A DNA stretch of 63,473 nt, filler included, from Hausera hauseri (lineage: Eukaryota), in assembly GCA_046269625.1 (NCBI GenBank). It is 12 parts of 12 records of this genome, joined end to end, with 100 filler letters (N's around TTAATTAATTAA, not from the genome) between each part and the next. Parts side by side here need not be neighbours in the genome. Positions count along the whole stretch, not along the records: positions 19,100 to 23,051 come from JBJURY010862631.1; positions 23,152 to 27,617 come from JBJURY010566895.1; positions 27,718 to 31,835 come from JBJURY010749764.1; positions 31,936 to 36,899 come from JBJURY010376591.1; 8 more parts are not named here. One strand, given 5' to 3'. Position 1 is the stretch's first letter. Every line of letters starts with the position of its first letter. Below are positions 8,214-41,622 of the stretch, one piece after another. The notes under the pieces are model-generated. The model was not told the origin of the DNA, made no database searches, and saw only the letters and a list, made by a program, of their open reading frames with translations. The position numbers were made by a program, and so were the translations under genes.

Positions 8214-8244
8214 TATATGATGTTTATAGCGCCACAATCTAATA

Positions 8245-13560: not shown

Positions 13561-13659
13561 GTGGAGCTAAATGTGAATTAAGTATAATAGTAATAGTAAT
13601 AAATTACTTCATAGTAAGGCGACGACGAAGTAGAAAAGGTGATACACACCGGATTTTAT

Positions 13660-14152
13660 GTTTACAATGACGGTTCCGTTTTTCGTTATTTCAACCTCGG
13701 CATCAATTACACTGTAATTGTACATCATGGTAGATTGCTCCCACGCTTTAGCAAAGTGAAACTCCAGTTGCAGGTTTCCCTGCTGAGGTAGTTGAGTCTG
13801 TTCAACGTCATAGTATGGAGCGAGGACAAAGGTGAAGAATGGATAGGTGGACTTGAACAAATCCATCGATATGGCATTGTTGATGTTTTTGTTGAGCAAA
13901 CCCATGTTGTGCACGACAGATTGCATATATGTTCAAACGTAATCATTAGACTCAAATCTTGTTTGTACATCTCAGTGAAATCCTCATTCCTACCCAAACT
14001 GATGTAATTCACATTGCTATGGGTAAACGTTTCCGAATCGGTCGTGTAACTGCCCGTTTGTTAAACAGTCGTTTCAAATGTAACGAGCACAAATTTCGGC
14101 AATCGCATGTCGCCAAACAGTGCATCTTTGTAAAACGTAGTTGAACCTTTCG
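13660..14152 (-). pseudogene. Maverick major capsid protein, C-terminus
   Basis: FFTFVLAPYYD...QQGNLQLEFHFAKA...DAEVEITKNGTVIV; close paralog of 26580-27050. Confidence 0.85.
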
Positions 14153-19099: not shown

Positions 19100-20183
19100 T
19101 TACCAATGCCATCTTATTTCGTATGATTTAATAATTTAATTTACATTCGTTCAGTATTATTTCTCTATATAAACTTCTGATCTCTTCTGATATAGTTGGT
19201 CAAAAATCGATTTTATTATTGAAGTATTGCGTCAATTTTATGTCCTTCTTATGTAATTTTGTTTTAGCTTGTGCTATCTCCTTTGATGAGAGGTAAATAC
19301 CTTTATAATTGATTTTAGACATTTCGTCATTGCATTTATTGATTATTCCGATAATTTTAAATCTCATCATTTCTTCAGAGTTTTCTGAATATACCACCGT
19401 TGCCACTTCCATCATTTTTACTTCTTTAGCTCCTTCTTTATAGGTCGCCATCTCTTTTTCAACTGTTTTTCCTACCGTTCTATTAAATTTTCCTTCTTTT
19501 AGCAGAGTTAAATGCATCTATTTGAGGATACTTCCCACGTCATCTTAGATTCTCCAGTATCACATTCCCCATTATCGTATTCACACTCACTCATTGTTGT
19601 CATAAGCTTAGTTTGTGAGTCAAATAATCCTTTATACTGCTTTAGTTTGACTTGGTAATCTTCAATGGCCACTGTTCTAGGTGCGATGGTACCTCCAACA
19701 TCATAGTCTACTCCTTTACATGTGCCTTCCATTGTTTTATCTATTCTTCCGGCTCTGAAAATTCGGGTATATTTTATTTTATTTCGTACTGCTGGTATTT
19801 GTGCATTTTGTGTTGTCATGATTCCTATTTTAAATGTCTTGACATTCTGCACGTGATATTATTATTGGCTGAAAAGGCGTCGTTGGTTCTATAGTAGCAG
19901 AATTCCCAGAATAGTATGCACAATTGAATAAAAAGAATGATTTCTTTACAAAATATTCCCTAATTTTCGCTTTGATAAATTCTGATCCCTGGTAGACCCA
20001 ATAACTGTGACCATTACTTGCAATTAACTGTTCCGGGTCTGCTTCAAGGCATTTTCCCAAATCCACCAAGGAGTACTTCTGTCCTTTTTGGGCTTCGAAC
20101 AATTATAAGCCACAATATCCATTGCTTTAGGCATACATATGGATACCATTAATAATAATTGTAATATCTCCATAAATGACATT
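19100..20183 (-). pseudogene. Env-like viral glycoprotein (chuvirus/Jingchuvirales-like Cys pattern), N-terminal half
   Basis: Signal peptide MSFMEILQLLLMVSIC, then IVAYNC...YSLVDLGKC...FNCAYYS...ISRAEC...GTCKGVDY...CEYDNGECDTGE..TW...YFNNKIDF...LYREIILNECKLN. Confidence 0.7.
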
Positions 20184-20239
20184 CAACCTAAGCCTTGTTT
20201 TATTGCATTAGGTGGCATTGATATTGGTTTCTCATATGA

Positions 20240-20700
20240 TCCTCCTTCGAGTCTTATTTTACCACTCATCAGACTTGGTACCCATCCACCTCTATATTGT
20301 ACCCAATTCTCCAAAGTGTCTCATAATATTTTAACCGTTACTTTTATGTTTCTTTCAATTTCTTCTAGATTTGGAGTTTGGCAATTAATAAGAATTACTT
20401 TATATAACAAGTAGGCAACAGCCGTTATAACTTTTTTTCTAGAAATTCCTGTTGCGAACATATTTTCCAATATATCTTGCTCGTGTAATTTATTAATTCT
20501 TTCTTCATTAATATTCTCATAAAACTGCCTGCTAATTCTTAGCATATTATTACGCAACGTCTGAAATAATTCATAGGGTATAGAGATCTGCATGTTGAAC
20601 GATGCAAATGACGTATGTAACTTCGCTAATAGTGTTCTTAACAGAGGGTCTATATCTATTGTTTCCGACGATGTATCCGTTCCTGCCAATAATAGACGTA
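20240..20700 (-). pseudogene. Bcl-2-family domain inside the retroelement polyprotein
   Basis: BH3-like LFQTLRNNMLRISRQF, BH1-like ENMFATGISRKKVITAVAY, BH2-like DTLENWVQYRGGW. BH2 is in frame just past a single TGA at 20321-20323. Confidence 0.7.
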
Positions 20701-20869
20701 GTACTATTTCCTCATTTCTATCTCTTTTATTACGGATATTGCTTATCTTCGTTCCTCTTGGCCTTCTCCTTCTCTTAGCTTCAGTTTGTACCGTAACATC
20801 CTGAGTTTTACCTAATGGTTGTTCTGATGCTTCAGATGGTTGTAATTCCCCTATTATATTATCTATCGT

Positions 20870-21120
20870 TTCTTCCGCTCTTGTATCTGGGTGTATCTCC
20901 GTTATCGTAATCGGGTTATAATTCTCACTTCTACAACCAATTCGTAATAATTTATCATAACTATATAACGCTCTTCCATATAAGCTTAACCCGTATACTT
21001 TTTCTTTATAGAATGGTTCTACTTCTTCAATCTTCTCTCGCAACGTTAATATGTCATCCGTTTCATTCATTCTGAGGATTCCCAAACCTTTGTTTCCTTT
21101 CTTTAGTGTTATTCTTATTG
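20870..21120 (-). pseudogene. Degenerate PDZ-like segment
   Basis: IRITLKKGNKGLGI and IGCRSENYNPITITEIHPDTRAE resemble PDZ betaA-GLGF and betaC-alphaA, separated by an insertion. Confidence 0.4.
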
Positions 21121-21782
21121 ATTCATTTCTTCCCTTTTTATCTATTCCCTTTTCCCCGTGCTATTTCTCTTATTGGACTGTTGTCGTGAGCAAGTAGTAG
21201 TAAATGAAATAAAATTTCATTTATCTTAATTATGGATACTTTACTGTCTATCAGTTTTAATATGGTGCTCATTGCTTGGTTTACGTCGACAATATTTTCA
21301 GGATCAATGACAACTACTGCTTGAATAGGATCATCTTCAGCATCCAAATCGAACTCTGTCTCATGCATTACCTGTTCAATTACGGTTTTGTCAAATATCT
21401 TCGTAGGGTGTACCTCGTTCTCGCTTTCCTCTGATGCTGATTTGCCCTGTTTACTTTTTCTTCGTCCTCTTCTCTTTTTTCCACATCACTTTTCTCCACA
21501 CAGGTTTCTCGGGATTCTACATCTATTATCTTTTTATTACCTTTCTTTCTTCCGTGACGTGGTTTTTCTCCTTTTGGTTTTTCTTCCGTTACATAGACAC
21601 TATTTTCTCTCACTCTTTTCTGTTGGACTTTATAATCTTTTAGTTCCATCTCTAATTGCATTTTCATACGTTGAGATAATATATCATTAACAAAATTCAC
21701 AATTTCTTTTTATCTTTCCTTTTTGTTTCATGTTCACTATCTTCCGTTTCATATTCCTTATCTGATGATTCATTCGAGGTAG

Positions 21783-22800
21783 CTAACGTATAACCTTTTT
21801 TTCGCTTATCACCATTGAACTTTTCCGAGCCTTTTTACATGACCTACGTGCCTTTGCTATATGGCCATATTTATTACAATTAAAACACTTTAATCTTCCT
21901 TCCGAATCTATATTAGGCAATGCCATTCCGTTCTTTGAATCTCTTTTCTTGTGTTTCTTTTCTCCGTTGTTTTTTAATTTAAACCTTACTGTCATTTCTA
22001 CATCTGATTCAGTTTCTGTTGCTGACGTTTGTGACGGACTTCGACTGCTATCATATCGCTGGTATCTTTGGGTACTATTATCCTTTCGTTTATCATAATT
22101 GTTATTATCGTTTCTTGACTTTGTTCATTTATATAATTCGGCGTCCCGTTCAGCTTTTCGTGCTTTCCTTATGGTTTCTTGAAACGTAGACGGGTCAGCT
22201 TGTAAAATTATACTTCTTAACTTTCCTTCTAACCCATACTGGAATTGAGCCAACAGCGCATTACTTCTTATTGCTGCATGAGTATAAGCCCTTGCGGCTA
22301 ACTTTTCTAGTGTACAGGCAAAATCCTAAACCGTATCATTTTTTCATTGCCTCCCTCGTATAAATTCTTCTATCCTCCCCTTTCCAGAGGGATCTATTAG
22401 AAATTTTTGAGGTAACTTCTCTTTGACAGTTTTCCAATCCCTTTTGTCTTCGGTCGGCATCTGAAAGTAAATCGTTAATGCAGTTCCTTTAAGATGGAGA
22501 GGTAATCTGTACATTCTTTGTTGGTCATTCCATCCAAAACTCTTTAAATATACTTCATATTTCATAATAAAATCCTGTATCTTTTTTTCCTAAAAACTTC
22601 TTCATAGGTAAGGTGAAATTCGCTTTAGATTGGATCATCTGTTTTACATTATGGTCGTTTCGAGACATTCTACTATCCTGTTCTTTATTTAAGTTATTCA
22701 AAAATTCCAAAGCAAATGGTACGTTATCGTCGGTTTCGTTCGTCCTAAATGGTGTGCCTTTACGAGCCGTAATTTTGCTATTTCAAGGGTTCCCTAACTT
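21783..22800 (-). pseudogene. Gypsy gag (capsid plus CCHC knuckle), disrupted
   Basis: GWNDQQRMYRLPLHLKGTALTIY, LAQFQYGL...STFQETIRKARKAE, CFNCNKYGHIAKA. Confidence 0.85.
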
Positions 22801-22823
22801 ATCTAAAGGTTTCGTAATTTTGT

Positions 22824-22842
22824 ATCCCGTGTCACAGCATCA
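22824..22842 (-). promoter_or_regulatory. Primer binding site, tRNA-His-like
   Basis: TGATGCTGTGACACGGGAT, 3 nt after the LTR end; resembles the His PBS TGGTGCCGTGACTCGGAT. Confidence 0.65.
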
Positions 22843-23179
22843 GATTGTTAAAATTATTTAGAGTTTACTCAATTACTTTCTTTTATTTATGAATGAAATA
22901 GGACAACAAAGTTTCTCCAATGTCAAAGTATATGTAAATAAACCAAGTCAAGAAATAATATACACATGTCATCAAATCCAATATATTATCAATCACCAAA
23001 AACAAGTTAACAACTTACGTGAGGTCATAGCAATCAACAAAAGAAAACTAANNNNNNNNNNNNNNNNNNNNNNNNNNNNNNNNNNNNNNNNNNNNTTAAT
23101 TAATTAANNNNNNNNNNNNNNNNNNNNNNNNNNNNNNNNNNNNNNNNNNNNAACAGGAACTGCCGCTACTGCCCGAGAA

Positions 23180-23300
23180 ACCCGATGTGTATCGTATTCA
23201 GTAAATTCTATGCTCACGTGGCAAAGGTTGGAATAAACAATATCTCGTCAAGTGGCACGGATACACAGTACCGAGTTGGATTTTTGCATCAAAGATTCAA
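23180..23300 (+). pseudogene. Chromodomain at the C-terminus of the Maverick integrase
   Basis: VYRIQ*ILCSRGKGWNKQYLVKWHGYTVPSWIF, in a frame the ORF track does not show. Confidence 0.75.
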
Positions 23301-24357
23301 TGTGCAGCATTACTTGGTACTTGATAGTAACAGATCACTATCACAGTATGATGAAAATGACAATACCGCTAAACAGTTTACCATGTACTTTGAACAACGC
23401 GTCGATTTACTCAACGGAGCCTGGGAAGTGACTTTGACGGAATTCACATTTACATTTATACCAATGAATATACGTCAGAACAGTGGTATTTATTTAACAC
23501 GACAAGAAACGTACCCTATTTCAAATAGTTTGCGGACAATCCGACACAATAACCGATATACTCTTCGCAATTATTAGCGAAAAAATTTCTCAGTTTATGC
23601 TTATTTTCCAAACTACCGCATGAAACTAATGCATCGAAATCCCATTAAAATGCAGTTTAATTCTATAGCTGATGCTCAGGCATGTGGTGTTCAATCAGTC
23701 AATGTACACTCAAAACTTCTACGGCTTGGCGGACATGTTATAATTGGTAAAAAATTGGACCTTTTATCCAATGCGGAATCCGATATTATAGTAAAGTGGA
23801 CTAAGTCAGAATCAGTCTGCCGTTCATATATTATACAAAACGATTTATCAATGGAAACGGAACTGGAATTGTGTGAATACGTCAAGAAAACGGCTACATT
23901 AGCTGCAAAGACATGTGAAATAAACGCCGATGGCCATATTTTGCTTACACTACATGACAATGTAAGATATTTTGCTTTTGATGAATTATTGGCTCAGACT
24001 CTGGGTTTTTCAAAACGCGAATTATATTAAAACATTGTTGGACGATCTATTGTTGCAAAATACAAACTACAACTCTATGGAGCATTTTATAGAATCAACA
24101 TTTTGACTGACTTAGCCGAATCTGTACTCCTTGGTTGAGAACGTAAACAACTAGTGGCTTCTATCGAACTGAATTTTGACGCGTACAAAACATCGGCTGG
24201 AACTGTTCGCGTAAATATGCTCAGACCCATATACTTATCATTGTCTCACAATATTGTGCACAGTATTTCCGTGTATATGCTTCATGAATTTTGGGAACCC
24301 ATTAAATTTCTGTTTGGGTCAAAGACACATTTGACATTACATTTTCGACGTCGATAA
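23300..24357 (+). pseudogene. Maverick minor capsid (penton) paralog 1
   Basis: HYLVLDSNRS...NTAKQFTMYFEQRVDLLNGAWEVTLTEF ... PIYLSLSHNIVHSISV...THLTLHFRRR. Confidence 0.75.
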
Positions 24358-24393
24358 TAAACAAACTGCGTCATCACCATCATCATCGAGATC

Positions 24394-25471
24394 ATGAGTA
24401 TTTACATGGTGTTGCCGAGCAACAGTTGTCCAACGACTCGTCCGAACAAATCCGCTAGTGAATACGTTGTATATTGGAACAATCCTTTGAATTTATCTGG
24501 AAAATAGGATGTTGCAATGACAGAATTTAACTTTCCCTACGCACCGGTGATATTAAAAGGTTGTATGAAAATAATGTATAACAAGACTGTTACTGAAACC
24601 AAAACACATTCTTATCCTGTGACACTTACTAACAATAAAATAACGTTTGGAGAATCAGCCATTTGCACGACCAAAGCAAATTACGGTTCAAACTGAAAGA
24701 TCGGTGTTTCTATTTTAGATCAATACTTACATTTTATGGCAGATTTTGAATTTACTGTTACCTTTGAGTCCTCTGATATGGCGCAGAAATTTGGATTCAA
24801 AAATACAGAGTACAAAGTTAACATGTTAAAAGTGAAAAGTGTAGTTGGTCCAAGATTAAGTCCTGTATATTACCAGACAACGGTAAAATTTACCTATACA
24901 GCAGTAAAGGTGTCATCTTCATACGTATCGATTGAAGAAAATGTCTGTTGCGAATCTGTAGCACATCTCTGTCAACATTTCTCTTTAAATCAAAAGTACA
25001 AAAAAATATTTAAAGTTTTCGATTCAGATGCAAATGAGTTCATTAAATTTGATCTAGCTAAGGATATTGTCGACATTTTATTGGACAAAGCTTTGGCCAT
25101 GACATTGGGTTTTTGAAAAACAGCGCATTAAGGCATCGACGGCGGTGGCACATGTTACAACACTTAAACCCAAAATGAAAACTGCTCTAAGTCAAATGTA
25201 CATTTATGTGAACGTCACCGAACCAATTTTGGTCGGTGGAGTACGTGTACCGCTACTCCGTGCAATTTATCCGGAAAGCAACAAGTATACTGCTGGCGAC
25301 AATTATACTGTCAAGCTCGATAATCCAATGTACCTACCTGTGGCATCTACATCTATAAATAATGCTAAAGTGAATATCCGATGTGACGCGGGCTACCTCA
25401 TTGAATTTCCGTACTTTACCACAACCAGTCAAACTCTTTATTTCCGTCGAATCCAACAACAACATTATTGA
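24394..25471 (+). pseudogene. Maverick minor capsid (penton) paralog 2
   Basis: MSIYMVLPSNSCP...LNLSGK*DVAMTEFNFP ... IYVNVTEPILVGGVRVPLLR...PMYLPV...TLYFRR. Confidence 0.8.
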
Positions 25472-25479
25472 TTCCGAAA

Positions 25480-25830
25480 TCGTTTGCATTTACAGTAAAC
25501 CCAAGCAGGGTGGTGAACTTTCGTATTTTGTTTGCAAACAGTATGGCTCTTCTTGGTTACGTACATTGGCACGTTTAGCATTTCCGGTGTTGAAGCGCAT
25601 TGGAGCATTCGCAGCAAAAGAGCACAGGTCATACTATATGAAAAGAAATCGATTTTACCATCATTGGAGGAACACGCCTTATCAGAAATAAAAAGCACTG
25701 CACCGGATATCGTTGAATCAGTCAAAAAAGAATTCTCTGGCAGTGGCTTGAGAAAACGCCGTAAAGCATCATCGAGCTCACCAACCATAAGCAAACTTCG
25801 TCGTCGTACGATTTTTGAATTACCGACAAA
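25480..25830 (+). pseudogene. Maverick small basic core protein (adenain substrate)
   Basis: KQGGELSYFVCKQYGSSWLRTLARLAFPVLKRIG ... SGSGLRKRRK...RRRTIFE. Confidence 0.6.
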
Positions 25831-27050
25831 TGGCATCTGCAAAATCTGAATTGTGTATATTTGAAAATGGCGCACCACAAGTTATTATTGACAATTCGGA
25901 ATTTGAAGAAATCTATCCCGTTGAATCCGTTTCAACGGACGATAACTTTGACATTCAATACAATATTATGTCATCGTATAATGAATACCTGGATTTGAAC
26001 GATACGCTACTCTATGTAAAAGTCATTGGTAAAAAGATGCATCAGCGGTTCTCGCTGCAACAGACACTGTCACAACGCCCAATTACCTTTTCCTCACACT
26101 GTTCCAGGAGGCTTCACTGACTGTAAACAGCGTTAAAATCGAAGGCAAAACTAGTCTATACAGTATCAAAGCACTCATTGAAACGGCTCTGAATTACAGT
26201 ACTAACATGAAAACGACTCTTTTGACGAAAATCATGGAATATAACGCCACTGCAGCAAACCCTCAGGCATGGATGGCAGAATTAAAACCACTTACAATGT
26301 GTAAACCGCTGTACTTTGACGTTTTCGATCAGCCAAAATACCTACTGCCCGGTGTTAAAGCTATGATTCGGCTCAAATGCAGCAACAATGTCTTTTGTTT
26401 GAAAATCGCCGTTGCAAATCACAAACCCATACTTAAAATTACCGAGGCACGATTATACATACGTCGGGTAAAGGTAGAACCATCTGTGCTCATTGGACAT
26501 AGATTGGTTTTGGAAACGCAAAATACCTCTTACCCGATACACGGACATAAGTCGTGTTTTACACCATACCCAAAGGTTCAAAGACGCACTGTTTGGCGAC
26601 ATGCGATTGCCAAAATTTGTGCTCGATACATTTCAAACGACTGTTCAACGAACGGGAAGTTATATTACCGATTCGAAAACGTATACACATAGCAATGTGA
26701 ATTACATCAGTTTTGGTCGGAATGCGGATTTCGTTGTGAGACATACAAACAGGATTTAGAGACGGTAGATTATGTTTGCATATATGCAATTTATCGTGCT
26801 CAACATGGGTTTACTAAACAAAAATGTCAACAATGGCAAATCGATGGATTTGTTCAAGTCCACATATCCATTCTTCACATTTGTTTTGGCTCCAGATTAT
26901 GACGTTTGAAAGACTCAACTATCTCAGCTGGGAAACCTACTACTGGAGGTTCACTTTGCTAAAGCGTTGGAGCAGTCTACAGTGATGTACATTTACGGTG
27001 TATTTGATGCCGAGGTTGAAATAACGAAAAATGGAACCGTCATTGTATAA
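25830..27050 (+). pseudogene. Maverick double-jelly-roll major capsid protein
   Basis: MASAKSELCIF...YLDLNDTLLYVK; DVFDQPKYLLPGV; ITEARLYIRRVKV; frameshifted. Confidence 0.88.
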
Positions 27051-27099
27051 ATAAAATCCGTTGTGTCTCACTTCTTCTTGATATTATAAATTAATTTAT

Positions 27100-27500
27100 T
27101 ACTATTATTACTATTATATTTAATTCACATTTAGATCCACCAAGCTCAATCACTATGGAAAACAGCTCTTGGGTGTGTAATTTCGTGGCATGTTTCCACT
27201 ACATGGTGTGCCGCGCAATTTACCACAAAATGGCGGCGGTGGCTTTATTGCCAATACACACACGTCATCGTTATCTGGCGAACATTGGATTGCTGTGTGC
27301 ATCCACCATCCGACCAACGTCGTCAGAGTATTCGATCCGCTCGGATTTTACTACCCTTCATCGTAAGTTTCTCAAATTGAAAGGCAATCACCATCGTCAT
27401 ATCGTGTTGAATACAATCGATTTCATTATCAACTTCTACTGACCGTATTCTGTGGACATTATTGCTTACTGTGGCTAACGTTACAGACACGTGGATGAAC
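27100..27500 (+). pseudogene. Maverick adenain-like protease
   Basis: FRGMFPL...FIANTHTSSLSGEHWIAV...VFDPLG...FCGHYCLLWL. Confidence 0.85.
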
Positions 27501-28558
27501 AATGATTATTGTACTTTGTATTCATTTAGAGAGAAATACATTATTTTTGTTACATATGTGTTATTATTGTCATCACTTCGAAGTCCCTTTGCTACACGCA
27601 CATAAACACGTCACAACNNNNNNNNNNNNNNNNNNNNNNNNNNNNNNNNNNNNNNNNNNNNTTAATTAATTAANNNNNNNNNNNNNNNNNNNNNNNNNNN
27701 NNNNNNNNNNNNNNNNNATTTATTGTTGTTTTTGTCGATCTTGATATTTTTTGTCGTACTTTTTTGTGGATCTTCTCATTCGGTGATTGCAATATATACA
27801 TATTTGTTGACCAAAGTATATATATATATACATATATATCTTTGTATTTTAACCTAAAGTTGTGAGCGATGAAAAAGATAATAGGAAATTATTCGGAATT
27901 ATTTTGAAAAAAATTCGGTTTTCATTTGAATATTTTAATATAGATTTCTGCTGTTTTTTCTTTTTTTTGGTTTATTTCTTGTGATTTGTTTGTTATATTT
28001 GTGCAAATGTGATACGTTTTAAAGCTTGTTGTTTTCTCGTTTCTTGGACAAATTTCAATGGGAGTTGTATTGAAAACATCGAATAGTGTCATTACTTTCT
28101 GATGTTAGCTTGATGTTTGTATCGATTTTGATTAGTTGAATTATATTTGGAATGTTTTAGTACGAGTAATGAAGTAGAAATAAATCCGTTCTGAGTTTAG
28201 TTTTTACTGTAAATGGATTTATTTTTATTAAATTTACTTTTTGGAAAGTTAGTCAACTAAAAACAGTTCCTTCCTTTAGACTTCTGGCGTTTGGACTGCC
28301 CTCATCAGAATAAAATTTCTACTTAATATATATTTTACTCGGCCATCGTTTTAAAATTTATCAGTTTTTTTGATAATGGTTTGTAAATTTGTGCTCATGT
28401 GGACGACACTAACGTAAGTTTAAATACAGAGTGATCGTCAAAAAATCGAATATTAGTGTCGGCTATTTACGCTAACTGATATCCGATTTCTGCTGATCAC
28501 ATTGTAAATCATGTTTGAGTCTTCTACTATGTTCCTTCTTTGACGTATCATTGGATAA

Positions 28559-28870
28559 CACTGTCCAAGAAAAAAATTTTTTTCTGCTTTCGCAAATGTG
28601 CGCTGTTTTTAAATCTCAAACCGTTTTTCTCTGTCAGGTCGGAATCTAAAGAAATCCATAATTGAAATTTTTACATGAAGTTTAAGTTTCCTTGCCGCCG
28701 ACTTTCGTCTGTGAATGACATGTGGTTGATCGCGATAAAGCATCCAACAATAATCGGCAATCATGGCAGCATTCCACCGTCTTTGATAACGTGAATCCAT
28801 AACTGTGATATCTTGATGGAATTATTCTTTGTTTAATGCTGACTTCGCTGTCAGGGAAAATGAAATCCAT
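28559..28870 (-). mobile_element. Chapaev3-like (CMC superfamily) transposase C-terminus and right end
   Basis: MDSRYQRRWNAAMIADYCWMLYRD; terminal CACTG at about 28559. Confidence 0.7.
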
Positions 28871-29792
28871 TATTGTCTTCTTTGCACTTATCGCCATTGT
28901 CATGTCTGACGACTGTGCCGATACAGGCAGTAACTGTGCATCGAAAACTAAAGAAGCTTGTGTTAATCCAGACGTGTTCAACAGTTGTAACAAATCTTGT
29001 CATTGACAAAGACAAAGGAGATTGTGACAAAATGGACGACAGGTTTTGCAGAAAGACTTGTGGAAAATGTTAAATAGATAATAAAATATTTTAGTCGTTT
29101 TTATTACTATGAATCAATTTATTTTAACTAACTAATTAAAACTAGTTTATTGAAGTAAAGATGATTGGAGATGTAGAGTTTACAACTACACTTTAAAAAT
29201 TGCACATGACATGTTTTGTAATTATAGTTCAAGCCTCGAAGAAATTTGTGCAAAAATAAATTGAAGTAATTTTTGAAACATTCTCTACTAAAACGATTTG
29301 AAACAATCTTGTACTAATTATGGAAAATTTCCCAATGGGACCCAATATATGTTTAAAACCTTATTGGCGGGTAAGTTCCTATACAAGTTCCTATAAGCTG
29401 GTGTGTACCATTTAAAATGACATTGCATAATTTTAACTTTGTTTGCAACAATTCTTTTAATATTATTAATCAGCCTAAAATTTTGAACTTGTAAAACTCT
29501 GATTAGATGTAAGGTGTTGTTCATTTTCAGTGTAATGAAAATGATTCTGAAATTGAATTTTATCGAGCTGCATTAGTCAACAAATAAATTGAAAAATCAG
29601 GAGATTGAGTACAAGAAAGTTACTCTATATTACATTAAAGTAACCAAATTTTGTACAAGTGTAAAACTATTGTAAGTGTGCAGTTGACTTATTTAATTAG
29701 GTGTTCATAATTTTTCATGAAATGAAAGATGTGAACTTTATCTGTATTTACAGATTCTGTTGAATTTACTTACTCGAATACAAATGTGTAGG

Positions 29793-31835
29793 CAGAGGCG
29801 GATCCAGAGAAATCGATGTCCTAGGCAAGAGGAGCATTCCATGCTCCCTCCTGAGTACTAGTTACTTTATTGTTGAATAATTACTACAAACTGCAACCAG
29901 CGATATTAATTGTTATAGATCAGTACATATTTTTGGTATTGACAATTAAACACTCTCAAGTTATTTAATTTTGGTATTTCATTGGCAATGGCTTCACATG
30001 CGAAAAACCATCTATCTGGAACTCAGGGCCGTCATCTAAATATGAAGAGGAAAGCTGAAGTATCGGGAATGTTAGCATAATGTTTAAATGGCTTAAGCCT
30101 TCTTTTGTACGAGAAAAGTCAGGCAACACAGATGTTTCTATAACTATGTGGATTGCTAATCATGCAGAAGAACCACTGCTTCAAAGTTGCTTACCACAGG
30201 CTGAAACTGAAACTTCAATGGATGACATTAGAGACAATATCAATTCTAACTATGTCAGCTTACGTCACATTGATCTTAATGACGCAGAAATTTGGAACAG
30301 TGATGAATTGAAACATTATGTGCTTTCAGATGGAGCAGACAAAGGAAAGGACTTCAGGTACTCTGGCTCAGTTGATAAACACAAAAGAAATTTCTCAGTC
30401 TCACTGTTTAAGAAACAGATTCGTAATAGTGATATAACTGATTGTGAATGGCTGATATATTGCAGACTTAAAAAGCTGTGTTTTATATACTTTGTATGCT
30501 GTTTGGCAAGCCAAGCGAGGTTTCCATTGAAGATAAAGAAAAATGCATAACACAAAAGAAATACATGGGTGACAGAATAACGGAACACGAGAATTCCACT
30601 GAGCATCTGCAGTGTTTCATTAGCGGAAAGAGATAGAAAGACGCATAAAGAACAAGAACAAAATAGGAGACTATTGTGAAAAGAGTTTGCTTGCTGAGAC
30701 AAACAAATGGCGAACTATAATCTCTTCCGTGACTAAAATGATCATGTTCTGTGCTAAGTACAATATGGGCCTTCGTGGTCATATAGAAGAATTTGACAAG
30801 CGAGATAATGGAGTATTTCTTAGTGCCTTTGAACTATTAGTTTCTTATGACACTGTTCTTGCCAATTATATAGCAGGTCACCAGAAAGGAGCTGTTAGCT
30901 ACTTATCTCATATTACTCAAGACGAACTGATCGAACAGATGTGTGTGTATGTCAGAAATCAGATTTTAATTAATGTCAAGGATAGCAAATACTATTCTCT
31001 AATTTTAGATTCAACTCCTGATGTGTCACATAGTGACCATTTGTGGAGGACAGTTCCTTCTCATATAAATACAGTCAATGTTTCACTTCAGAGTCCAAGT
31101 TTGACACATGACAATGCTTGCAAATTGTTGGAGGGTTTACAGCATTGTTTGGGCAAAGTTAGGCATCAGTTTTGTGAAAGAATAGTAGAGCCAAGAAATA
31201 CAATTGATCAGGCTTTTAACATCCGTGATTCATTCACCGAAAAGAGGATCAGAAAGGTAAAGTGTCAATTTGATGAGACTACTGAAGATGAGTTTAGGTT
31301 TTTCAACCCATTACAGATATTTTGCCAGCAGTGCTATCTCATTTTAAACCGTGTACAGGCTGAAATGAAAAAGAGGTTTCACTTATTGAGCACAATTAAT
31401 CCTAATTTTGACATTTTCACTGCATCAAAGTTGACAGCGGTTTGTGATGAAGATATTTTGTTGTCTGTTACAAAACTTTTCGCTGTTTATAAAGATGATT
31501 TAGATAGTACCGACCTGCTTCGAGAATTAAATGTTAAAAATATGGCTACCTGTTATTCTGAACACAAAGATTGAAAATGCTGGACACTTCAGGTCTTAAA
31601 CGCAATTGTGAAGTTCAAAATGCAATCAAAATGCAATGTGTATTGCTATTCGAACACTTCTCACTTTGTCAGTGATAGCAGCTTCTGCAGAAAGAAGTTT
31701 CAGCCGTTGAATTATCATTGAATTTGAACAACATTTTCAGCTTCTTATTAATTGTGCAATGAAGAGTTAAACCAATTTTCCGGGCCCCACTGCATTATGT
31801 ACCCTAGACAGCTGTCCAGTTTGCCCATCCCTCGA
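29793..31835 (+). mobile_element. hAT transposon (ZMYM1/DUF4371-type transposase), internally deleted
   Basis: Left end CAGAGGCGGATCCAG; MGLRGH...NGVFL...YLSHITQDELI...YYSLILDSTPDVSH; ASAERSFSRL dimerisation motif. Confidence 0.88.
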
Positions 31836-31935
31836 NNNNNNNNNNNNNNNNNNNNNNNNNNNNNNNNNNNNNNNNNNNNTTAATTAATTAANNNNNNNNN
31901 NNNNNNNNNNNNNNNNNNNNNNNNNNNNNNNNNNN

Positions 31936-33599
31936 CCATTGCTGTCTGGAACGTGGCTGGAGCATTCATCATTCCAAACGCTATGCGGATAAATTTATAA
32001 TGCCTATCTGCAATCACAAACGCTGTTTTTTGTTTATCTTCTTCTTGTACTTCTATCTGCCAGAAGCCTTTTTGTAAGTTTAACGTAGTACATAACATTT
32101 TATCCTTTAATTTATCCAATATTTCATCAATTCTTGTCAACGGGTACGTATTATCTACTGCTACACCATTTAGAGCGAGGTAATCCACACATTTTGATGG
32201 ATCCATCTTTCTTTTGTACCATTACAATGGGAGCTGTCCATAGGGAATTACTTGGTCTAATTATATCATTTTGCCTCATTTCGGCTATTAATTCCTTAGC
32301 TTTTTCTCGCTTATCGTAATTGATCCGATATGGCCTTTTCTTAGTAGGAGTTTTCATTCCAGTTTTTAGCTTAATCTCATGCTTGGTGACGGGTATTATA
32401 CCAATATCACATTCATCTATAGTAAAAGTATCCTTATATTGTTGTCGTACCTTCTTTCTCCACACCTGTCAGTATGCTACCATTTCCAAACAAATCATGA
32501 TCGTTCCAGTTAATAGGAGTCTTAACAAATTTTGTTATTTTCTTATTTCTATCAAGATGACTTTTCAATTTATTCATTGGTACATTTTGTAATCGTATTC
32601 CGGCTTCTATTCGTGGTTTATGTTGTTGTTTTTCCATGAATTCAGACAGTTCCTGTACCGTGGAAATAATAGTTTTAGTTGCATTATTGCCTATATCTTT
32701 TATGATATATACGTAGGCAATCCTTATGCCTTTTCTCCAATAGTTTCGGTTTATTTGAAGTATAAGCTATTCGAACAATTACTTGTTGTTCCCGAATATT
32801 TTCGATCTTGTGCGCGATCCACAATTCATTTTTATCCATAAAGTTTACATTTTGTTCGATGTATACATCTCCTTCATCTCGTCCTTGTACTAGGGCTTTA
32901 AGCACAATCTCTCTTCTAGCCGATGCTAACACGTCTTCCTTAATGGATATTGTGTCCTTTTTCTTGTTCTTTAATTTCCGGCATGGTTGGATTTGTTGGG
33001 TCTCCAAATTTATACACATATTCTTTAGTTTTGCTAACGCGTCACAACCAAGTATAGCTTCTGCCACCAATTCATCGGCTATTCTGAATCCCCGTTCAAA
33101 TTTTTGGTTAAGGACCTTTGTCTCACATTTAATCAGATCTTTTACTTGCACTCTAGAACCGAATGCTGCAACATTCGTAATGTCTTCTGCGGGTTTTTTT
33201 AAACTTTTTCTTCACTTGTTCTGGCAGTTGTTTACGTGAAATCATTGAGGCTGATGCTCCAGTGTCAATTATAGCAGTTATAGGATAGCCATCTATCCAA
33301 ATTACTGTTCTGGGAATCACCTTGCCTCCGTCTATACTAGTTATCAATGTCTGTCTTGGAGCCGATGGATAAAACATCAGATTTACATGTTTTGGGTCAT
33401 CATTATCCATACCGCCTGAACAATGTACATCTATGTATTCATTGGGAGGTATAAAGTGTGACCGTTCCATTGGATATTCAATCCATTTTCTTATTCGTGG
33501 GATATCCGATAACAATGTTCTTCTCTTTTTACTTCGGGCGGTGATCAGACTCCATATCTTCTTAGTATTTTCTACTGGTTTAAGTCTTCTTACATTCAT
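31936..33599 (-). pseudogene. Gypsy protease and RT N-terminus
   Basis: AIIDTGASASMIS, AILGCDAL, WTAPIVMVQKKDGS, YPLTRIDEILDKL...KGFWQI...KTAF. Confidence 0.9.
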
Positions 33600-33689
33600 C
33601 TTCTTTACTGAAAGTTTATCTTCATCATTATTATCATTTTCCTTATTCTTGCTTTTATTTTTCTGTTTCCATTCAGCGGCTTTTTAAAT

Positions 33690-35030
33690 CAAAAACAACT
33701 AGCTATGGATGGAATCCTAACCATCAAGAATTGAATTGACCAAACCACATGTACCATCTCCATTCGGTTGCAAATATATCCTTATCTATTTTCTTTGCAT
33801 AGTCAGGTCCCACCAAATTTTCTGAGTTGGCTTTTCAGATGTCATCAGCTAACACTTTCGTCGCCATTTCTATTTAAACTTTGTCTCTCTTGAGAGAACA
33901 TCATCATCCTTCTATGGTTTTCCATATCTTGTTCGGAGTACACGCCCACCTTTACTAAATCTGTCAATGGTTTATACGTTTGTTCAATTATCAAATTAAT
34001 TAAGATAATTCTCCGAGGTGGAGTAATCTGCTGCTTTTTCGGCATCCTTATCCATAAATTGTCGCTTAGTCGAAATGCTGGCGACATGGTATATGTACAA
34101 TTCTGATGTATATATGGTTTTTCTGCTGGATCCAGCAGTATCCGTGTTATGGGTTGTAGAAAACGCGGCTTTTCCTTGTACCATACAGGTAATTCCATAG
34201 TACAATCAGTAGTTGGTCTTAATTTGACAGTTACTTTTGTACACTCGAAGGTTACAAGAGTTTCACTTATGGTTCGAGCAAATTTTCCTTCTGCGTCTGG
34301 TGATTCGGCTGGGTCTTTTATTATTCCGTCCGTTACTGATGATAAGTATATCCGATTTCTGATTATCTCTATTCAGTTTACAATCGTTTAATATTATCTC
34401 TCGATACATGGCATAAATATTTTCTTGCTGAAAATGATCAATCTTGTTGTCAAAATAGAGGTGGGGTTTCACCTCTGATTTATCAGTCTTCCTCTTAGCT
34501 TTTGCTACTTCTGTTGTGGATAGAAATATCCCTTTATAATTTGTTCGAAATACCGTGTGTTCACATCTCCTGGTATCACTTTCTAACTTAAATCTCATTC
34601 CATCTTGAAGATTTGCTGAATATACTATAGTAGGGATCTCAATAATATATGATACTTGGTCTATTCTGCTCTTAGATATCTCTTCTTTGTACATTAGTCC
34701 TTTTGCTTCATTAAACTTTCATACTTTTAATAAAGCTAACTAACACTGCTCCTTATCGACTTAATATGACATAACTGACTCGCCAGGGTTACATTCTTTA
34801 TTATAATAGTCACGTTCAGAAAATGTCATCATCTTTCCTGAGGATAGTTCAAAGAAGGCATCATATTCTCTCAGCTCAACTTGATAATCTTCTATGGCTA
34901 CTATGTTGTCCAAAATTTCACCATTAATATGATATGACACGCCCTTACAATATCCTGTCTTGTCAACTGTTCCAGCCACAAAAATCCTTTTATTAATAAT
35001 TTTTCCTTTTTGAGCCTTTGTTAACACTGG
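33690..35030 (-). pseudogene. Env-like glycoprotein directly upstream of the protease (paralog of 19100-20183)
   Basis: GYCKGVSY..VAIEDYQV, YFDNKIDH..MYREIILNDCKLNR, CTMELPVWY..KPRFLQPITRIL....NC; C-terminal aromatic/TM segment WRWYMWFGQF. Confidence 0.75.
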
Positions 35031-36999
35031 GGTCAAATGCAAGCATTTGACCTTTACATATGTGTCAACATATAATGGGTTAAAGGGGTATGTTAAGGTT
35101 AGAGTAAGGTAATCAGTCCACATGTTCCTTTTCTTACCAATTGTGTTACCTTCATTTCTATTACTTGAATATATTAACTTCATTATTTATGTACTTTTAC
35201 TTTTATTATTTTTTGCATCTTCTTTGATGAATGGATTCCCAAGCACAGGCTCCATTCAATGACGTCATGTTTTCCTCAGCAATAGATCCGAATAAAGTAT
35301 ATTTAATCAATAATTATAATCCATGTTCGACGGTTCTTATCAAATAATCATTAGTACCGAATCAAAAGTCAAATCCATTTGCTTTAATCCGAAGTTGTGT
35401 TCAATCGCTGAATATAGATCAAACCACAGAGTTCTGTATACTTTACAATACAAAACTTAAAATACTTTACAACAATAATTACGTATATATATTTTAAGGA
35501 AAAATACGAATTCATTTAATATGATTGATTTATTCTCCATCTATGGCAACCCGGGTATATCGATCTCACAATATCGTTATCAAATCAATTTTTATAGAGG
35601 ATTATATGTAGGAATATTTTCGAAACCTCATTATCATCTCTAAAGCCCGTTAATTGATGTTAAATAAGCGACGGTTCTCGTTCTTTATCCATACCCACAC
35701 TTAATAATTTATCTAACGTTCAGTCTTAGTCTCATAATTCATTCTCTGTTTGTACTTTCTTTTATTCCCACAATAGTAAAATATATGTTAAACCTTCGTT
35801 ACTATCATTTTTCCAATTTCTTTCGTAAGAAAATATTCTTGTAAAGGTGATTAAGTGAAGGTTCTTTAATTCCGTGACACCATCCATCTCTCTATCAAGG
35901 ATCGTCTTCATCTGTTATCCCTCAGCACTACAAGTGATTGAATTATTTACAATATCTGAAAACAAAACTTTGTACCAGCGTTTATATCTGATCAATTTTA
36001 TTTCCATCTACATCATACTCAAAGTTGATGTTACAGTTAAGCAAACTTATCATATAATTACTGTTAAATAATTATTAGAATTGTTGAATAATATTCATAT
36101 AACTACAATTCCCAAACCATACATTCATTTAACTATAACAGAACAATAGTTATTATTGAAGCCAAAATCTTAAGCCCTTTCATTTTATAGATATACAAAT
36201 TATAATATTGACCCTGTCATTGTCCATGTCATATCTCATTCTACTCCATTCTCTTTATTTATTCATGTCTTTACATAGAGTTGCCTTGATAATTTTACAC
36301 TAATTTATTTGGATTCTACAACTATCATAGCAGTCTCTCATTGTGATTTTCATCTAAATACATTATTATAATAGTATTTATAACTTTAACCCATTAGATT
36401 ACTATCCTCATCTTTTACGATCAAATTCCACTGCAGTCTTAAACGGTAAACAGGTTGTGACGACCCTAATATCTAAAGTTAATAACATCCTTGCTTTATC
36501 ACGAACAATTACTTCATAGTCAATATTCTTGATCAGAAAAAATTTTTTAATGATCATGTGATGATAGTTCCGTTGAGGAGTTCGTTGAAACCACATTACA
36601 CGATTACATACCAAATTTAGCTGCAATCTTTCAACCATCCTAATCACAGGTACACTCTTTACATCATATAATATGCGTCAACTCTACTCTTCGTCTTTTC
36701 CGTTCATCTCCTTTTTGCGAGATTGATATATGCTCCATATGGTATCGAACTAATTTCATACAAATATGTTAGTAGGGTATTCTCTCTGTCCGTACCATAA
36801 CCATTGAAAACGCATACATAAAATGTTTGAATAAGAGGAAGAGGTCCACGAATATCATCTCATGCGCCCTTTCGAAGCCAATTTAATAGGATATTTATTN
36901 NNNNNNNNNNNNNNNNNNNNNNNNNNNNNNNNNNNNNNNNNNNTTAATTAATTAANNNNNNNNNNNNNNNNNNNNNNNNNNNNNNNNNNNNNNNNNNNN

Positions 37000-39930
37000 A
37001 TAATATGTCCCAGAAAATTAACGCGTTTTTGGAAGAAGTTACATTTTGCAAAATTGATCTGTAGGTTGAACTGATTGAATCGTTTGAAGATAGATCGTAG
37101 GTGTTTCTTGTGTTGTTTAATAGAAGAAGAAGCAACCAAGATATCATCAATATATGGATGTGCGAATGTGAAGTCTGAAAGGATTGAACCTAAATGTCGC
37201 TGAAAAGTTTGCGCAGCATTCCGTAGACCGAAAGGCATATACAAGTACTCATAAAGACCAAAAGGTGTGGTAACCGCAGTTTTCTCGATGTCTTCCGGTG
37301 CGACAGGGATCTGGTGGTATGCTTTGCTTAAATCGATTGTTGAATAAACTGTGGTAGAATTAAGCCGATGTAATATATCCTTGATCAAGGGTAGTGGATA
37401 CGCATCCATTATGGTCAAAGTATCAAATTGGCGATAATCGCCGCATAATCGAAAAGACTTATCTTTCTTTTGGACAGCGTGGAGAGGCGAAGACCATGGG
37501 GATTTAGATCTACGAATAATACCTGATTTTTCGAGTTCGAAAAAATCCGCCTCTACTGCTTGCCTGCAACGAGGTGACGGTGGACGAACCTTTTGTCGAA
37601 TTAGTCTTTGGTGGAGTGTAATAATATGATAGTAAATGCCGTTTACAGGAATGAAATTCTGATCTTTTTGAAGTATACGAGGACAAGAAGTATTAATGAA
37701 TTGTTCTATGCTTACGGGTAATTGCTTGAATATTGTGAGTGACGATGAACCACGGATGCTGGCAGTACTTGGGGTATGTTGACTGACTGTTGGTGAGGAA
37801 TCGAGTGGAGTTTGAAGTAGAATGGTCCAGTATGGGACCTTATTTGAGTAAGTGTAGTTGTTCAATAATTTTACTGAAGATACCGGATCGTGAATGTTTA
37901 CATTGAGCTGTGACTGACTATCGACGTTGTCCTTTGGAAGCTTACAATGTAAAACGTGATAGTTAAGAGAATTAGTATGAAATATAGATCGTTTTAAAAT
38001 TGATTACCTACTTACAGTTGGCTGTGATGTCGGCGGGGTGCTGTCTATTTCTGTGCCACAGTTTTTAAGAGTATTTGATTTCAGGCATCGTTGGTTACAA
38101 TCGACTAGCAAGTTGTAGTGTGACAGGAAATCGGAGCCAAGTATTGCCATCTGGACGTTAGGGACTGTAAACGTGCAATAAAATGGTGAGAAAAATTTTG
38201 GCAGAGTAGATGATAATTTGCAAGTTCCGGCGATATGAACAAGTTGACTGGAGGCGGTGTATAAAGGTTTTGTTTTAAGTGAAGAATGCTGAACCGGAAA
38301 AGAAAGTGGGAGTAGTGAGATCGCTGCACCGGTATTGATGATAAAGTCTACCGATTAAATGTTAGAAGTGGAGATAGCAGCTTTTAGTGTAAAGACTGAA
38401 AATGAAATGTGTCGGCAAGAGGAATTAGGTAAGATGCCTTTGCCAGAATCTGCTTATAATATTGGCGAAAAATCAGTTTTTTGGATTGGTGAGTTAGGAC
38501 GGTTAGTGTTAAAGAAACTGAAACGTCTATCCGTGGTGTAGTTATTGTTAGTTTTATAGTTACAGCCTGAAATACAATTCGGAGCATTAGATCCAAATTT
38601 TGCATACTAGATGCAAACTATGTTATCTGAGTGTAGAATTGGCGAATAATTTCTACACCCTAAATAGCATTTATTTGCTTTGATATTAAATTTGTTACGG
38701 TAATAACATATAAATAACCGCGTTGGTGACGGTGTTTGATTTCTTGAAAGAGAACGCGTTTAATGAGGCAAGGAAGTATTCCGTCAATGTAAGGAAAGGT
38801 CATTCAGCTTATAATTGATGGTGTTGATCATATGTTGTAGTGCAGCATTTTCGGCGCGTAATTGGTTCAACTGGTGCTCGATAGATGTATGTCGTTGATT
38901 GTCATCAGTTGTAATTGCGGTTGATATGATGGGTGGTCTTTATTGGCAAATTCAGCTAGTTTATATAAAGCTAAAGAATCCTCAACAACAGTAAATAAAG
39001 ACCTAATTTGAATGGGTAAAGCATTAAGGAAATATCGGCGAAGTAGATCCGGGTTGTGTTCCTTGGTGACACCCAAGGTACGTAAGTGAGCCAACAAGGT
39101 GCGTAAGAAATCACTAGGTTTTTGTGTACCCATTGCGTTTTCATTAAAGAAGCGTTGCATTATCGAGTCAAGTGGTGGTTCTGTCAGTTTTAATACAGCA
39201 TTGAACAATTGCTTATAAGGGTCAGGGTGTTGAAAGATGTCCAGTAAGTTATGAATTGAGGCCTTTATGGACTTTGATAGAAGGTAGAGATTATGAGCTT
39301 TTGTTAATGAGTCGGTAATGCCGTTGGATTGTAGCCAAAGTTGATGGAAGTAGAGCCAAGTCTTATTAGAATTTTTATTATCTGTAAAATATTCAGAGCA
39401 ATGTAAGGGTGTAATTGTGGGGTTTCTATGAGGAAAGGTAGTGTCGGTTGTAGATAGTGGATGGTTTGATTTTAGATAGTAGACAATGGATTTGGGTTTT
39501 GCGGTCACCTAATCTGTGATGTCACTGGGTGGTGAAGAAATCATACCGCCGCGGATTCTAGGGTGTATGTGAATACAGAGGTTGTATTGTGAGGACATGA
39601 TGTGTGGGAGCTCAGTTAAAATGAAACTATTGTGAGTCAAATAGAAGTCATTGAAGGCGGTGGCTCTGTAGATGAAGTCATATAATTGTGACGTGTCGAT
39701 ACGTTGTGTGATATGTGCGGTATGTATTAATTTATTATTTACAGAAAGGTGGATGGGAAATGACGTTGGTAAACAACAAGATGGGTAGTGTGGTATCTCC
39801 ACACATTTTATCGGGTGGATTCGATTTTCTTTTTAACAAAGAAGTATTCACCACTGTACAGTGACTCGTGTAATACATTCCAGGATTCCGTACCTGGTTT
39901 GTAGATACGTGGGAAATATGCACATATGAA
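37000..39930 (-). mobile_element. Gypsy LTR element: Ubl-gag, protease, RT
   Basis: gag DPYKQLFNAVLK...QKPSDFLR; RT SPWSSPLHAVQKKD..CGDYR..DLSKAYHQIP..MPFGLRNAAQTFQR..YIDDILV (open 37000-37865). Confidence 0.9.
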
Positions 39931-41622
39931 ATTAAATACTTTTGTCAATGCCTGAAAATGATATCTGTTTCCAGAATAGGTTGGAAAGAATATTGGGACA
40001 AAAGCTAAAAGAAGTGCAGAGAATTTTGGAGAATTACAGAGTTAGTTTTCCGCCGTTTATGAATAAAAGCCCAATGGACTTAGAATACGTCATAGATATC
40101 GTAATAAAGCGTATCCTTAGCTCGAATTATTAATCAAAGGCTTCGAGACATACGTAACCGCGTTCAATTACCAGTGTCGGATGCAATCATGTACGCCGAT
40201 AGATGGAGAGTGGGTAAAGCCCAATCATAAAAGTATGGGCCAATATTCTCCAGTAATTCACAATCGTTTTAGATGGATAACAATTTCTCAATGTGCGAAA
40301 GAATAGTAGCAAGACCATCCTGCTTATCCGCATCAGCATATCGCATGGCTATTACAAAACGTGACCCCACGAGCAACGGAAAGAAACTCTCATTGGCCGT
40401 CTGAATATACTTTGTAACAAAATTCGTCATTTGGACCTGTCGAAAGGCGTCGAGATTCCCTTCGGAGAGTTCGGAAAATATATAAATCAGGTAAAAACTT
40501 GTAATTAGTTTAAAAAAGGCATCGCCAAAGCATACCAAACTTTCATTTCCGAACCTACTTGATCGTGTTATATGTTAGAAAGGGAAATGCGACGTTACAT
40601 TTACCACTTTACTCAAATATTTCTTTCTGAAAGATCGATAGAGGAGGGATTTGTCGCCGTATTCAATGTGTCTTACTCCATAAGTAGTCGTTGTGTTCTG
40701 GAAGTGATCGGGGTTCGTTCCATAATTTGCGTTGCGATAAGATGGACGGATCAAGGCTTGATGTAACAATGATTTTTCTTTAAACATGTATTTCGAACTT
40801 TCCTCAAGTTCCAAGGGAGAAAAATGAAAGTGTATATAACATAAAACACTTGGAATTAGTAAGGCAAATTGTACAATATCGGTACAAAATCCTGTCTTAA
40901 AGAACCCATCAGAACTAATTTCAGCGGTAAATTCGTGACGTTGAATTCCGTTCATTTCAAAATTTTCAAGCAATCTTGCAATAGTTTTGAGTTCGGAAGT
41001 ATTGTCCTTGATAACAACGGGTCGATGCAGAATCGGGTACTAAAGTTTGAGACGCAATATATCCGAAATGTCGAATAGCACTCTTCCATTATCAATAAGC
41101 CATGTAAGAATGATGTCTGTCGATAACAGTTTAACGCCTTTCTTTGACGGTGGTCTCTCAAATCTCGGCAATGAGTATATAACTCGACAACTGCATGTGT
41201 TGTTTAAGTTAGGTGGCCACCGTTTCTTATCCGGTAATTCGAGAAGTTCTGTACACGGATAATCGGTAATCGAATCAAGACTACGAACGGTAAAATCGGT
41301 CGGAAAATCCTCTTCCACCAACGTATATAATATGCAATATTGTATCTGACAATCTGGCATGGTAGCATTTTAACGAAGGGTTTATGGATAAATATAGGGA
41401 ATCCTCTAAATGTAAACGATTTATCTTTGTGTTTGGTTAGTGTTGGTGTTTGTGACGGAAAATATGTCAATGGATAGGTTATCAGTTGATAATGATGTAA
41501 TTTTCCACAGTTATTAGAATTCAACTGAAAAATTAAAAAGGGCGTTTCGCCCGGAAAATCATCGTGTAAATGACCGATTTGGTACTTGGATTCACAAGAA
41601 CATGCAGGTCCATCGTTATGCG
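39930..41622 (-). pseudogene. drosha: Drosha fragment (central domain through RNase IIIa), intronless, internally deleted
   Basis: NDGPACSC...HDDFPGE...NNCGKLHHY; SSDGFFKTGFCTDIVQFAL; LLHQALIRPSY..NYGTNPDH; NESLVCFGDA (for NERLEFLGDA); LSEGNLDAFR. Confidence 0.88.

Follow-up and report, generated by a model that had tools for sequence, protein, structure and literature searches.

Retroelement pieces in the window

The window analysed here is a stretch of 63,473 nucleotides, filler included, made up of 12 short contigs of Hausera hauseri (assembly GCA_046269625.1) with N-spacers between them. Two of these contigs, taken here in minus-strand orientation, A (19100-23051) and B (31936-36899), carry broken pieces of a Ty3/Gypsy retroelement in which a virus-type fusion glycoprotein (env) appears to stand between gag and pol. 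Since A and B are separate contigs, their proximity in the window is meaningless. Contig A holds, in minus-strand order, the gag capsid, a zinc knuckle, an accessory region called X below, a signal-like stretch and the glycoprotein, which runs to the contig end, and no pol was found in this contig by Pfam scan and tblastn. Contig B holds, according to the Pfam scan, a flank, the glycoprotein, an aspartic protease (PR), a spacer and a reverse transcriptase (RT), which again runs to the contig end. Relatives were collected by a full HMMER search with a 175-residue env piece of contig B as query, returning 245 proteins at E ≤0.001, of which 150 were listed; 18 of the listed proteins, picked as long or top-scoring, were scanned for domains, and 159 proteins, cited below by ids such as P0004 and P0007, form the stored set for later comparisons. 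Word-index protein searches with the env piece and with X, covering proteins of up to 2000 aa only and thus weak evidence, came back empty, and in the viral contigs searched no locus related to the A/B element was found.

Features of contig A:

22843..23051, minus strand: possible 3' end of a long terminal repeat (LTR) or leader, unconfirmed, by position alone
22831..22842, minus strand: 12-mer resembling a primer binding site (PBS), 10/12 to the 3' end of tRNA-His
22125..22586, minus strand: gag capsid (Retrotrans_gag / Ty3_capsid) with internal stops; PF03732, E 1.9e-5, above the cut-off; PF19259, E 1e-3
21852..21890, minus strand: degenerate CCHC zinc knuckle; PF00098, E 4.5e-4
21141..21785, minus strand: linker, charged and helical, with frame changes; from translation, no credible Pfam match
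20876..21130, minus strand: weakly matching ubiquitin-like (Ubl) domain; PF00240, E 0.059-0.085 alone
20282..20551, minus strand: Bcl-2-like domain with BH1-/BH2-like regions and one internal stop; PF00452, E 9.5e-6 to 3.8e-5, below the curated cut-off
20087..20179, minus strand: env signal-like sequence and glycoprotein start, in a frame shared with Ubl and Bcl-2; translation, hydropathy, tblastn
19100..20086, minus strand: N-terminal half of the glycoprotein, broken, ended by the contig end; PF24664, E 7e-5; tblastn

Features of contig B:

35090..36899, no strand: AT-rich unrelated flank of ~1.8 kb; no tblastn match to the stored proteins at E 1
33690..35089, minus strand: glycoprotein without its start, broken, the anchor largely missing near 33720-33745; PF24664 pieces
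33000..33314, minus strand: aspartic protease (DTG), split across two frames; PF00077, E 9e-6; tblastn to P0004
32726..32999, minus strand: PR-RT spacer, conserved in relatives; tblastn to P0004, P0023 and P0153
31937..32459, minus strand: Ty3/Gypsy RT, N-terminal part, ended by the contig end; PF00078, E 9.5e-10

An earlier note on this DNA had read contig A as LTR, PBS, gag, accessory region and glycoprotein with no pol. The last four points stand; the LTR and the PBS are unconfirmed. The 209 bases at 22843-23051 have no second copy within the window, and no paired LTRs were found in the window. With the tRNA-His 3' end sequence taken from supplementary file 1 of PMC13524379, 10/12 matches occur 3 times in the window against 2.16 expected, and at least 3 were seen in 40 of 100 shuffles; this is the chance level, and the PBS reading of 22831-22842 is favoured by its position before gag alone.

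How the two copies are embedded can be seen in run X1, the sole sequencing run listed as containing contig A, with no RNA run listed. It probably represents the source sample, and its depth should not be read as a copy number. Summed depth is 17-28 over 22843-23051 and 0.5-16 in the flank of B (35090-36899), as opposed to thousands inside the element, and copy B is 5'-truncated at ~35090. In total 6162 X1 contigs were placed on A and 8531 on B, mostly 85-95% alike, which suggests that A and B represent two large repeat families, a copy number not being derivable from these figures. Of the contig pieces listed for X1 none exceeds 426 bases and none bridges A and B.

Both copies are dead. The env reading of A requires three frame changes and passes two stops, the part of B that was read two frame changes and five stops, and further stops and frame changes occur elsewhere in both. 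The description 'potentially infectious' given in the earlier note is therefore inapplicable to these two copies.

The glycoprotein

Contig A encodes the first ~360 residues of env, opening with a signal-like stretch near 20180-20125 (mean hydropathy 2.1 across 15 residues), and contig B lacks the first ~100 residues, its homology beginning at 35102-35015. The longest open piece of the B env, 33848-34372, matches PF24664 with E 2.4e-25, and two weaker pieces add to this. A membrane anchor is present in the env of relatives; in B the anchor region is ~34 codons short, with 5 residues between two motifs compared with 39 in 8 of the 11 relatives in which the first motif could be located (14 were examined).

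The homology of the two glycoproteins, claimed from the start, is borne out by tblastx (E 1.7e-42, identity 44-46% in two main blocks, no blastn match). Over 141 gap-free codons the two differ at 55 first, 42 second and 92 third positions, as expected from protein constraint on both active lineages, and this supports the view, likewise put forward earlier, that env was under purifying selection in both lineages while they were active. The cysteine pattern had been described as kept; it mostly is, with one cysteine that is retained in A, P0007 and P0004 lost in B.

By family the glycoprotein is assigned to the class III gB-like fusogens, the fold having been computed for the relative P0007. The P0007 env model, based on a 61-sequence alignment, reaches a pLDDT of 80. 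Compared with the PDB, all 40 rows shown were herpesvirus gB (best E 1e-13, TM about 0.35), and among viral models chuvirus-type glycoproteins matched best (E 2e-43). The comparison with class III proteins and Jingchuvirales G that had been proposed as a check thus came out in favour, and together with PF24664 it agrees with the proposal of an RNA-virus-type fusion protein between gag and pol. Two further members of the stored set, P0066 and P0079, have the same glycoprotein family joined to immunoglobulin domains or an ion-channel segment; these joins may be gene-calling artefacts or host fusions.

Region X

The accessory region is present as first described, its Ubl-like and Bcl-2-like identity having been missed. 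To judge from sequence comparison, X likely comprises a Ubl domain, weakly matched, followed by a Bcl-2-like domain, in frame with env. A profile (A1) of the X Ubl and four segments of relatives matched 42 PDB sequences, 37 of them ubiquitin-family by name, with a best E of 2e-4. For the Bcl-2-like search the internal stop in X was read as an unknown residue; all 15 PDB sequence matches of X are BAX, BAK or BOK (E 0.3-1.5). Among the 159 stored proteins, the segments preceding env in P0005 (iE 7e-6) and P0007 (iE 5e-3) show homology to X. The P0007 segment in turn matches PF00452 (E 1e-3), and the best 60 of its 85 PDB matches are all Bcl-xL/Bcl-2. The window, P0005, P0007, P0019 and P0159 all retain a BH2-like tryptophan-GGW motif, in the last two as judged by eye; the Bcl-2-like call in P0019 and P0159 is drawn from a phmmer match that is weak (iE 0.3), from an alignment reaching into the region, and from inspection. 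P0019 accordingly has Ubl, a weakly matching Bcl-2-like part and env, and P0005 has Bcl-2, env and PR. In P0004, P0011 and P0153 a Ubl is present, and no Bcl-2 match was obtained.

Pfam matches to SNF2, PAS_8, EF-hand and Adeno_E1B were dismissed as chance. By eye only, a short helical segment seems to stand ahead of the Ubl at 21141-21350 (minus strand) and likewise in P0019, P0011, P0153 and P0004, and this could represent one more conserved accessory domain, the third.

Gene order and relatives

Does the order put together from two contigs belong to one element? The earlier note had named gag-pol-env copies as the finding that would speak against its order; in the 18 scanned proteins RT ahead of env occurs in none, and PF24664 followed by a retroviral protease within one protein occurs in 10. 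Env-PR-RT-RNaseH-integrase (IN) is found in P0004, P0013, P0042, P0153, P0155 and P0159. The gag side before env and PR after it are combined in P0028 (Retrotrans_gag) and P0011 (zf-CCHC), and P0014, which matches the gag of A with its residues 41-254 (tblastn E 1.5e-12) and also the env of A and of B, has a protease at its end. In an env tree (FastTree, midpoint root; 105 rows, namely A, B and those 103 of the 152 profile-matched proteins whose span was long enough) A groups with B as its sister (99) within an 18-row clade (99), which includes all 11 proteins labelled env-then-protease by a motif rule. Because relatives carry gag-env-PR or env-PR-RT-RNaseH-IN in one frame, the stitched A-B order is not an artefact, and the gene order of the element, as far as sequence comparison can establish it, is gag-env-pol.

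Contig B had been said to run from the glycoprotein straight into PR and RT. Order and spacing are as claimed and the env-PR junction is collinear; an open frame is not found there, stops and frame changes interrupting the junction. No dUTPase was detected in the PR-RT spacer of B, with no Pfam match and no relevant PDB match. Downstream of PR-RT contig B ends, and PR-RT-RNaseH-IN is complete in the relatives alone. Assignment to the Ty3/Gypsy lineage, also part of the original proposal, is supported by the fit of RT, gag capsid and CCHC knuckle: among solved structures the closest to the B RT is Ty3 RT (4 matches, best E 2e-17).

Several of the proteins P0011, P0013, P0028, P0153 and P0155 show 2-7 aspartic-protease-like domains in tandem downstream of env. 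Ankyrin repeats and C2H2 fingers are further features of P0155, and in P0004, P0155 and P0159 the chain continues well beyond the integrase. P0004 (HBK71150.1), an env-PR-RT-IN Gypsy polyprotein, was deposited as a hypothetical protein of a Flavobacteriaceae metagenome-assembled genome (MAG); its DNA is probably of animal origin and ended up in a bacterial bin by error, and the label is not taken as evidence of a bacterial host.

Interpretation and alternatives

Taken together, A and B are best explained as decayed copies of two diverged Ty3/Gypsy families with the order gag, knuckle, likely Ubl, Bcl-2-like domain, env, PR, RT, likely translated as one polyprotein and resembling the Burro elements discussed at the end, an explanation that we hold with good confidence. 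Several points weigh against it. No single contig or natural protein was found to hold the full series gag-Ubl-Bcl2-env-PR-RT, which is assembled from overlaps, and the env tree comes from FastTree alone with midpoint rooting. The fold was computed for the relative P0007, which is 23-42% identical to the window env in tblastn blocks. As to X, its Ubl and Bcl-2 Pfam matches both lie under the Pfam cut-offs, the relatives' segments in profile A1 (from P0019, P0011, P0153 and P0004) were chosen by eye, a single-sequence model of X is uninformative (pLDDT 35.6), and the PDB sequences nearest to X are the pro-death BAX/BAK/BOK, the BH1-like motif being degenerate. Finally, the protein searches returned no named Burro sequence, and the comparison with Burro is by description.

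The alternative that survives best leaves the architecture as it is and makes the Bcl-2-like domain non-apoptotic, namely a scaffold at the membrane or an inhibitor of innate signalling, for which poxvirus Bcl-2-fold proteins are the model. This is a serious possibility, if a somewhat less than even one. The degenerate BH1-like motif would fit it, and the domain looks dispensable because it goes undetected in several clade members (P0004, P0011, P0153). Retention of the BH2-like tryptophan-GGW motif in the window and in four relatives argues in the other direction, as does the best match of the P0007 segment to Bcl-xL. By analogy with the fold family, a domain protecting the producing cell is regarded as the most likely; since the BH1-like motif is degenerate and the PDB sequences closest to X come from pro-death proteins, this falls short of establishing an anti-death role.

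It could also be imagined that the order is right and that gag-X, env and pol lie in separate frames or are expressed from a spliced or frameshifted message. In A a stop stands just before the methionine that opens the env signal sequence and several frame changes separate gag from X, as this would predict, and Chary and Hayashi treat GAG-ENV-POL as an arrangement of open reading frames (ORFs), the main text of PMC13524379 using neither 'polyprotein' nor 'single ORF'. Against this, Ubl, Bcl-2 and the env start of A share one common frame, a second stop sits inside the Bcl-2 domain, as decay would give, and in P0005, P0007, P0011, P0019, P0153 and P0004 the pre-env domains run into env without a stop. 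Separate frames are therefore considered improbable, and a single polyprotein, which the earlier note had offered as a perhaps, is likely for the active element on the strength of the one-frame relatives and of X and the env start sharing a frame in A.

Much less probable still is an accident of nesting or rearrangement, in which A would be a pol-deleted gag-env derivative and B an env fragment beside an unrelated Gypsy pol. Such an accident would account for the full order not being on one contig, for B having no gag and beginning inside env, and for the heavy breakage of both copies. Uninterrupted proteins of the same clade nevertheless have env and then PR, several continuing to RT-RNaseH-IN; the distance from the FGQ motif to DTG in B, ~156 codons, lies within the 122-382 of the relatives; and the B RT shares 55% identity over 85 aa with P0004, P0013 and P0155, compared with 35% for a different Gypsy RT of the window. 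Contigs of run X1 also cover B from env to pol without a drop, this run being probably the source sample and hence not independent. From the order in the relatives, the env tree and the RT identities, nesting or rearrangement is therefore unlikely. An Anakin-type BEL/Pao element or a stray endogenised chuvirus glycoprotein is the least credible reading, since the Ty3-type gag, RVP protease and Ty3-like RT all speak against it and P0099, with DUF5641 (a BEL/Pao marker) upstream of env, falls elsewhere in the env tree, so that all it has in its favour is an env that shares its Pfam family with chuvirus G and with the Pao-linked glycoprotein (PMC13524379).

A possible mode of action

How might an element of this layout work? 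Under the favoured single-polyprotein reading, the active element would be translated as one chain, whose internal signal sequence would direct the ectodomain of env into the endoplasmic reticulum (ER) and whose env membrane anchor would bring the chain back to the cytosol. The gag-Ubl-Bcl-2 part would stay cytosolic, with the env signal sequence as its tether to the membrane; a tail anchor is the norm in Bcl-2 proteins, and the env signal sequence would take that position here. PR-RT-IN would hang from the env tail until released by the protease. In this way capsid, fusogen and enzymes could be gathered at one membrane in equal amounts, and enveloped particles might bud and enter neighbouring or germ-line cells via class III fusion. 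The Bcl-2-like domain, to judge from its fold family alone, would most likely keep the producing cell alive or dampen its defence. None of these steps is open to the two broken copies themselves.

Other elements in the window

Decayed ORFs in 23152-27617 and 13224-14130 look by eye like Polinton/adintovirus capsid genes; they have no Pfam match, and a 921-base copy, 83% identical, lies in another contig. Pieces at 53044-56540 (plus strand) look by eye like a presumed Polinton/adintovirus protein-primed type B DNA polymerase, and an Endonuclease_7 match (E 5e-6) is found in the same interval. A non-LTR retrotransposon with long frames occupies 57363-61264 (minus strand; ORF1 of 374 aa, then endonuclease and RT of 916 aa), and a 148-base direct repeat (97%) lies with it at 61291 and 63326. 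A second, ordinary Gypsy family is represented at 36948-39508 (minus strand) and 50088-51931 by gag and RT, between which no env was seen; its two gag copies are 64% alike, and a His-type PBS-like 12-mer is present at 51920-51931. Decayed RNaseH-integrase and integrase pieces at 5322-6845 and 46635-46856 match the pol of the relatives weakly and are not assigned to the A/B element. DDE transposase pieces occur at 7445-9131 (DDE_3, E 9e-6 at 7445-7921) and at 30059-31574 (hAT-like by eye), and host-gene-like exons at 41204-41806 (minus strand; PHD finger, E 6e-4) and 48583-49218 (plus strand; C1 domain, E 3e-8).

Comparison with known systems

If the clade outlined above is real, its significance lies in small intact members, with which two questions become testable: by what route one polyprotein gets its fusogen to the outside of a particle and its pol to the inside, and whether host cell death is blocked by a transposon. 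Env before pol is in itself no surprise to the specialist, because it is in print: a new architecture is not supported, the order being already described (PMC6431247; PMC13524379). What is new here, as far as sequence can tell, is the identity of X, a weakly matching Ubl and a Bcl-2-like domain in frame with env, in a compact setting. This Ubl-Bcl-2-env module is seen here in a family that is compact and, it seems, strongly amplified, as well as in a number of unnamed public proteins belonging to a single env clade. In the literature a Bcl-2 module in such elements was found only for the giant planarian Burro, subscription papers and the Burro genome paper lying outside the search.

By order and env type the element is assigned to the GAG-ENV-POL errantiviruses. 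These 'ancient errantiviruses' with HSV/gB-type ENV (Chary and Hayashi, eLife, PMC13524379) were reported from Nematoda, Bryozoa and Platyhelminthes, six of the elements coming from Schmidtea, and share with A and B, in the main text of that paper, the Ty3/Gypsy pol, the gB-type class III env and the position of env between gag and pol. They are intact and LTR-flanked, whereas A and B are broken fragments; the intact ORFs on which inclusion in that study is based are absent from A and B, which is a property of these copies and not of the family. The main text does not mention Bcl-2, ubiquitin or polyprotein, and its figure supplements may bear on this. Non-canonical nematode endogenous retroviruses (ERVs), known here by citation only (Sacco et al. 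2022, J Gen Virol, cited in PMC13524379), are similar as Metavirus with an RNA-virus-type glycoprotein and env/pol flipped. Anakin-type BEL/Pao elements with a chuvirus-like glycoprotein (Dezordi et al. 2020, cited in PMC13524379) have the same glycoprotein family and differ in retroelement superfamily, the pol and gag of A and B being of Ty3/Gypsy type. According to the parts of these sources available, Cer1 is not of this kind (PMC10309623), and Burro is mentioned for its size alone in PMC10175614.

The closest described system is Burro / GYPSM1, giant Gypsy elements of planarians with gag, CCHC, Ubi/SUMO-like, BCL2, env, PR, dUTPase-like and RT parts in one ORF (Arkhipova and Yushenova 2019, PMC6431247). 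Its env matches mononegavirus fusion glycoproteins, and that paper calls Burro the first case of an in-frame env between gag and pol. Common to both, on that description, are a gag with CCHC, a Ubi-like part (for which the match here is weak), a BCL2-like part directly before env, then PR, a spacer and RT. The Burro ORF1 has 4,873-5,140 aa and 2-3 knuckles, whereas in contig A the distance from gag to env is ~2.6 kb with a single knuckle. Burro has SMC, MATH, BIR, ankyrin or midasin-like parts, and the contig A ORFs have no such Pfam match; Burro has a dUTPase-like segment between PR and RT where the element described here has a conserved spacer with no dUTPase match. Being compact, free of the giant accessory parts and compared by description, the element is called Burro-like and not Burro. 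It is tempting, though still tentative, to picture retroelements that would make an enveloped particle out of a single polyprotein and bring along a cell-death regulator of their own. Burro would then be the giant extreme of a broader clade of such Gypsy elements, as yet without a name and with a compact member here, in which Ubl and/or Bcl-2 directly precede a gB-like fusogen, the env signal would serve as the Bcl-2 anchor, and pol would be packaged by its tether to the env tail.

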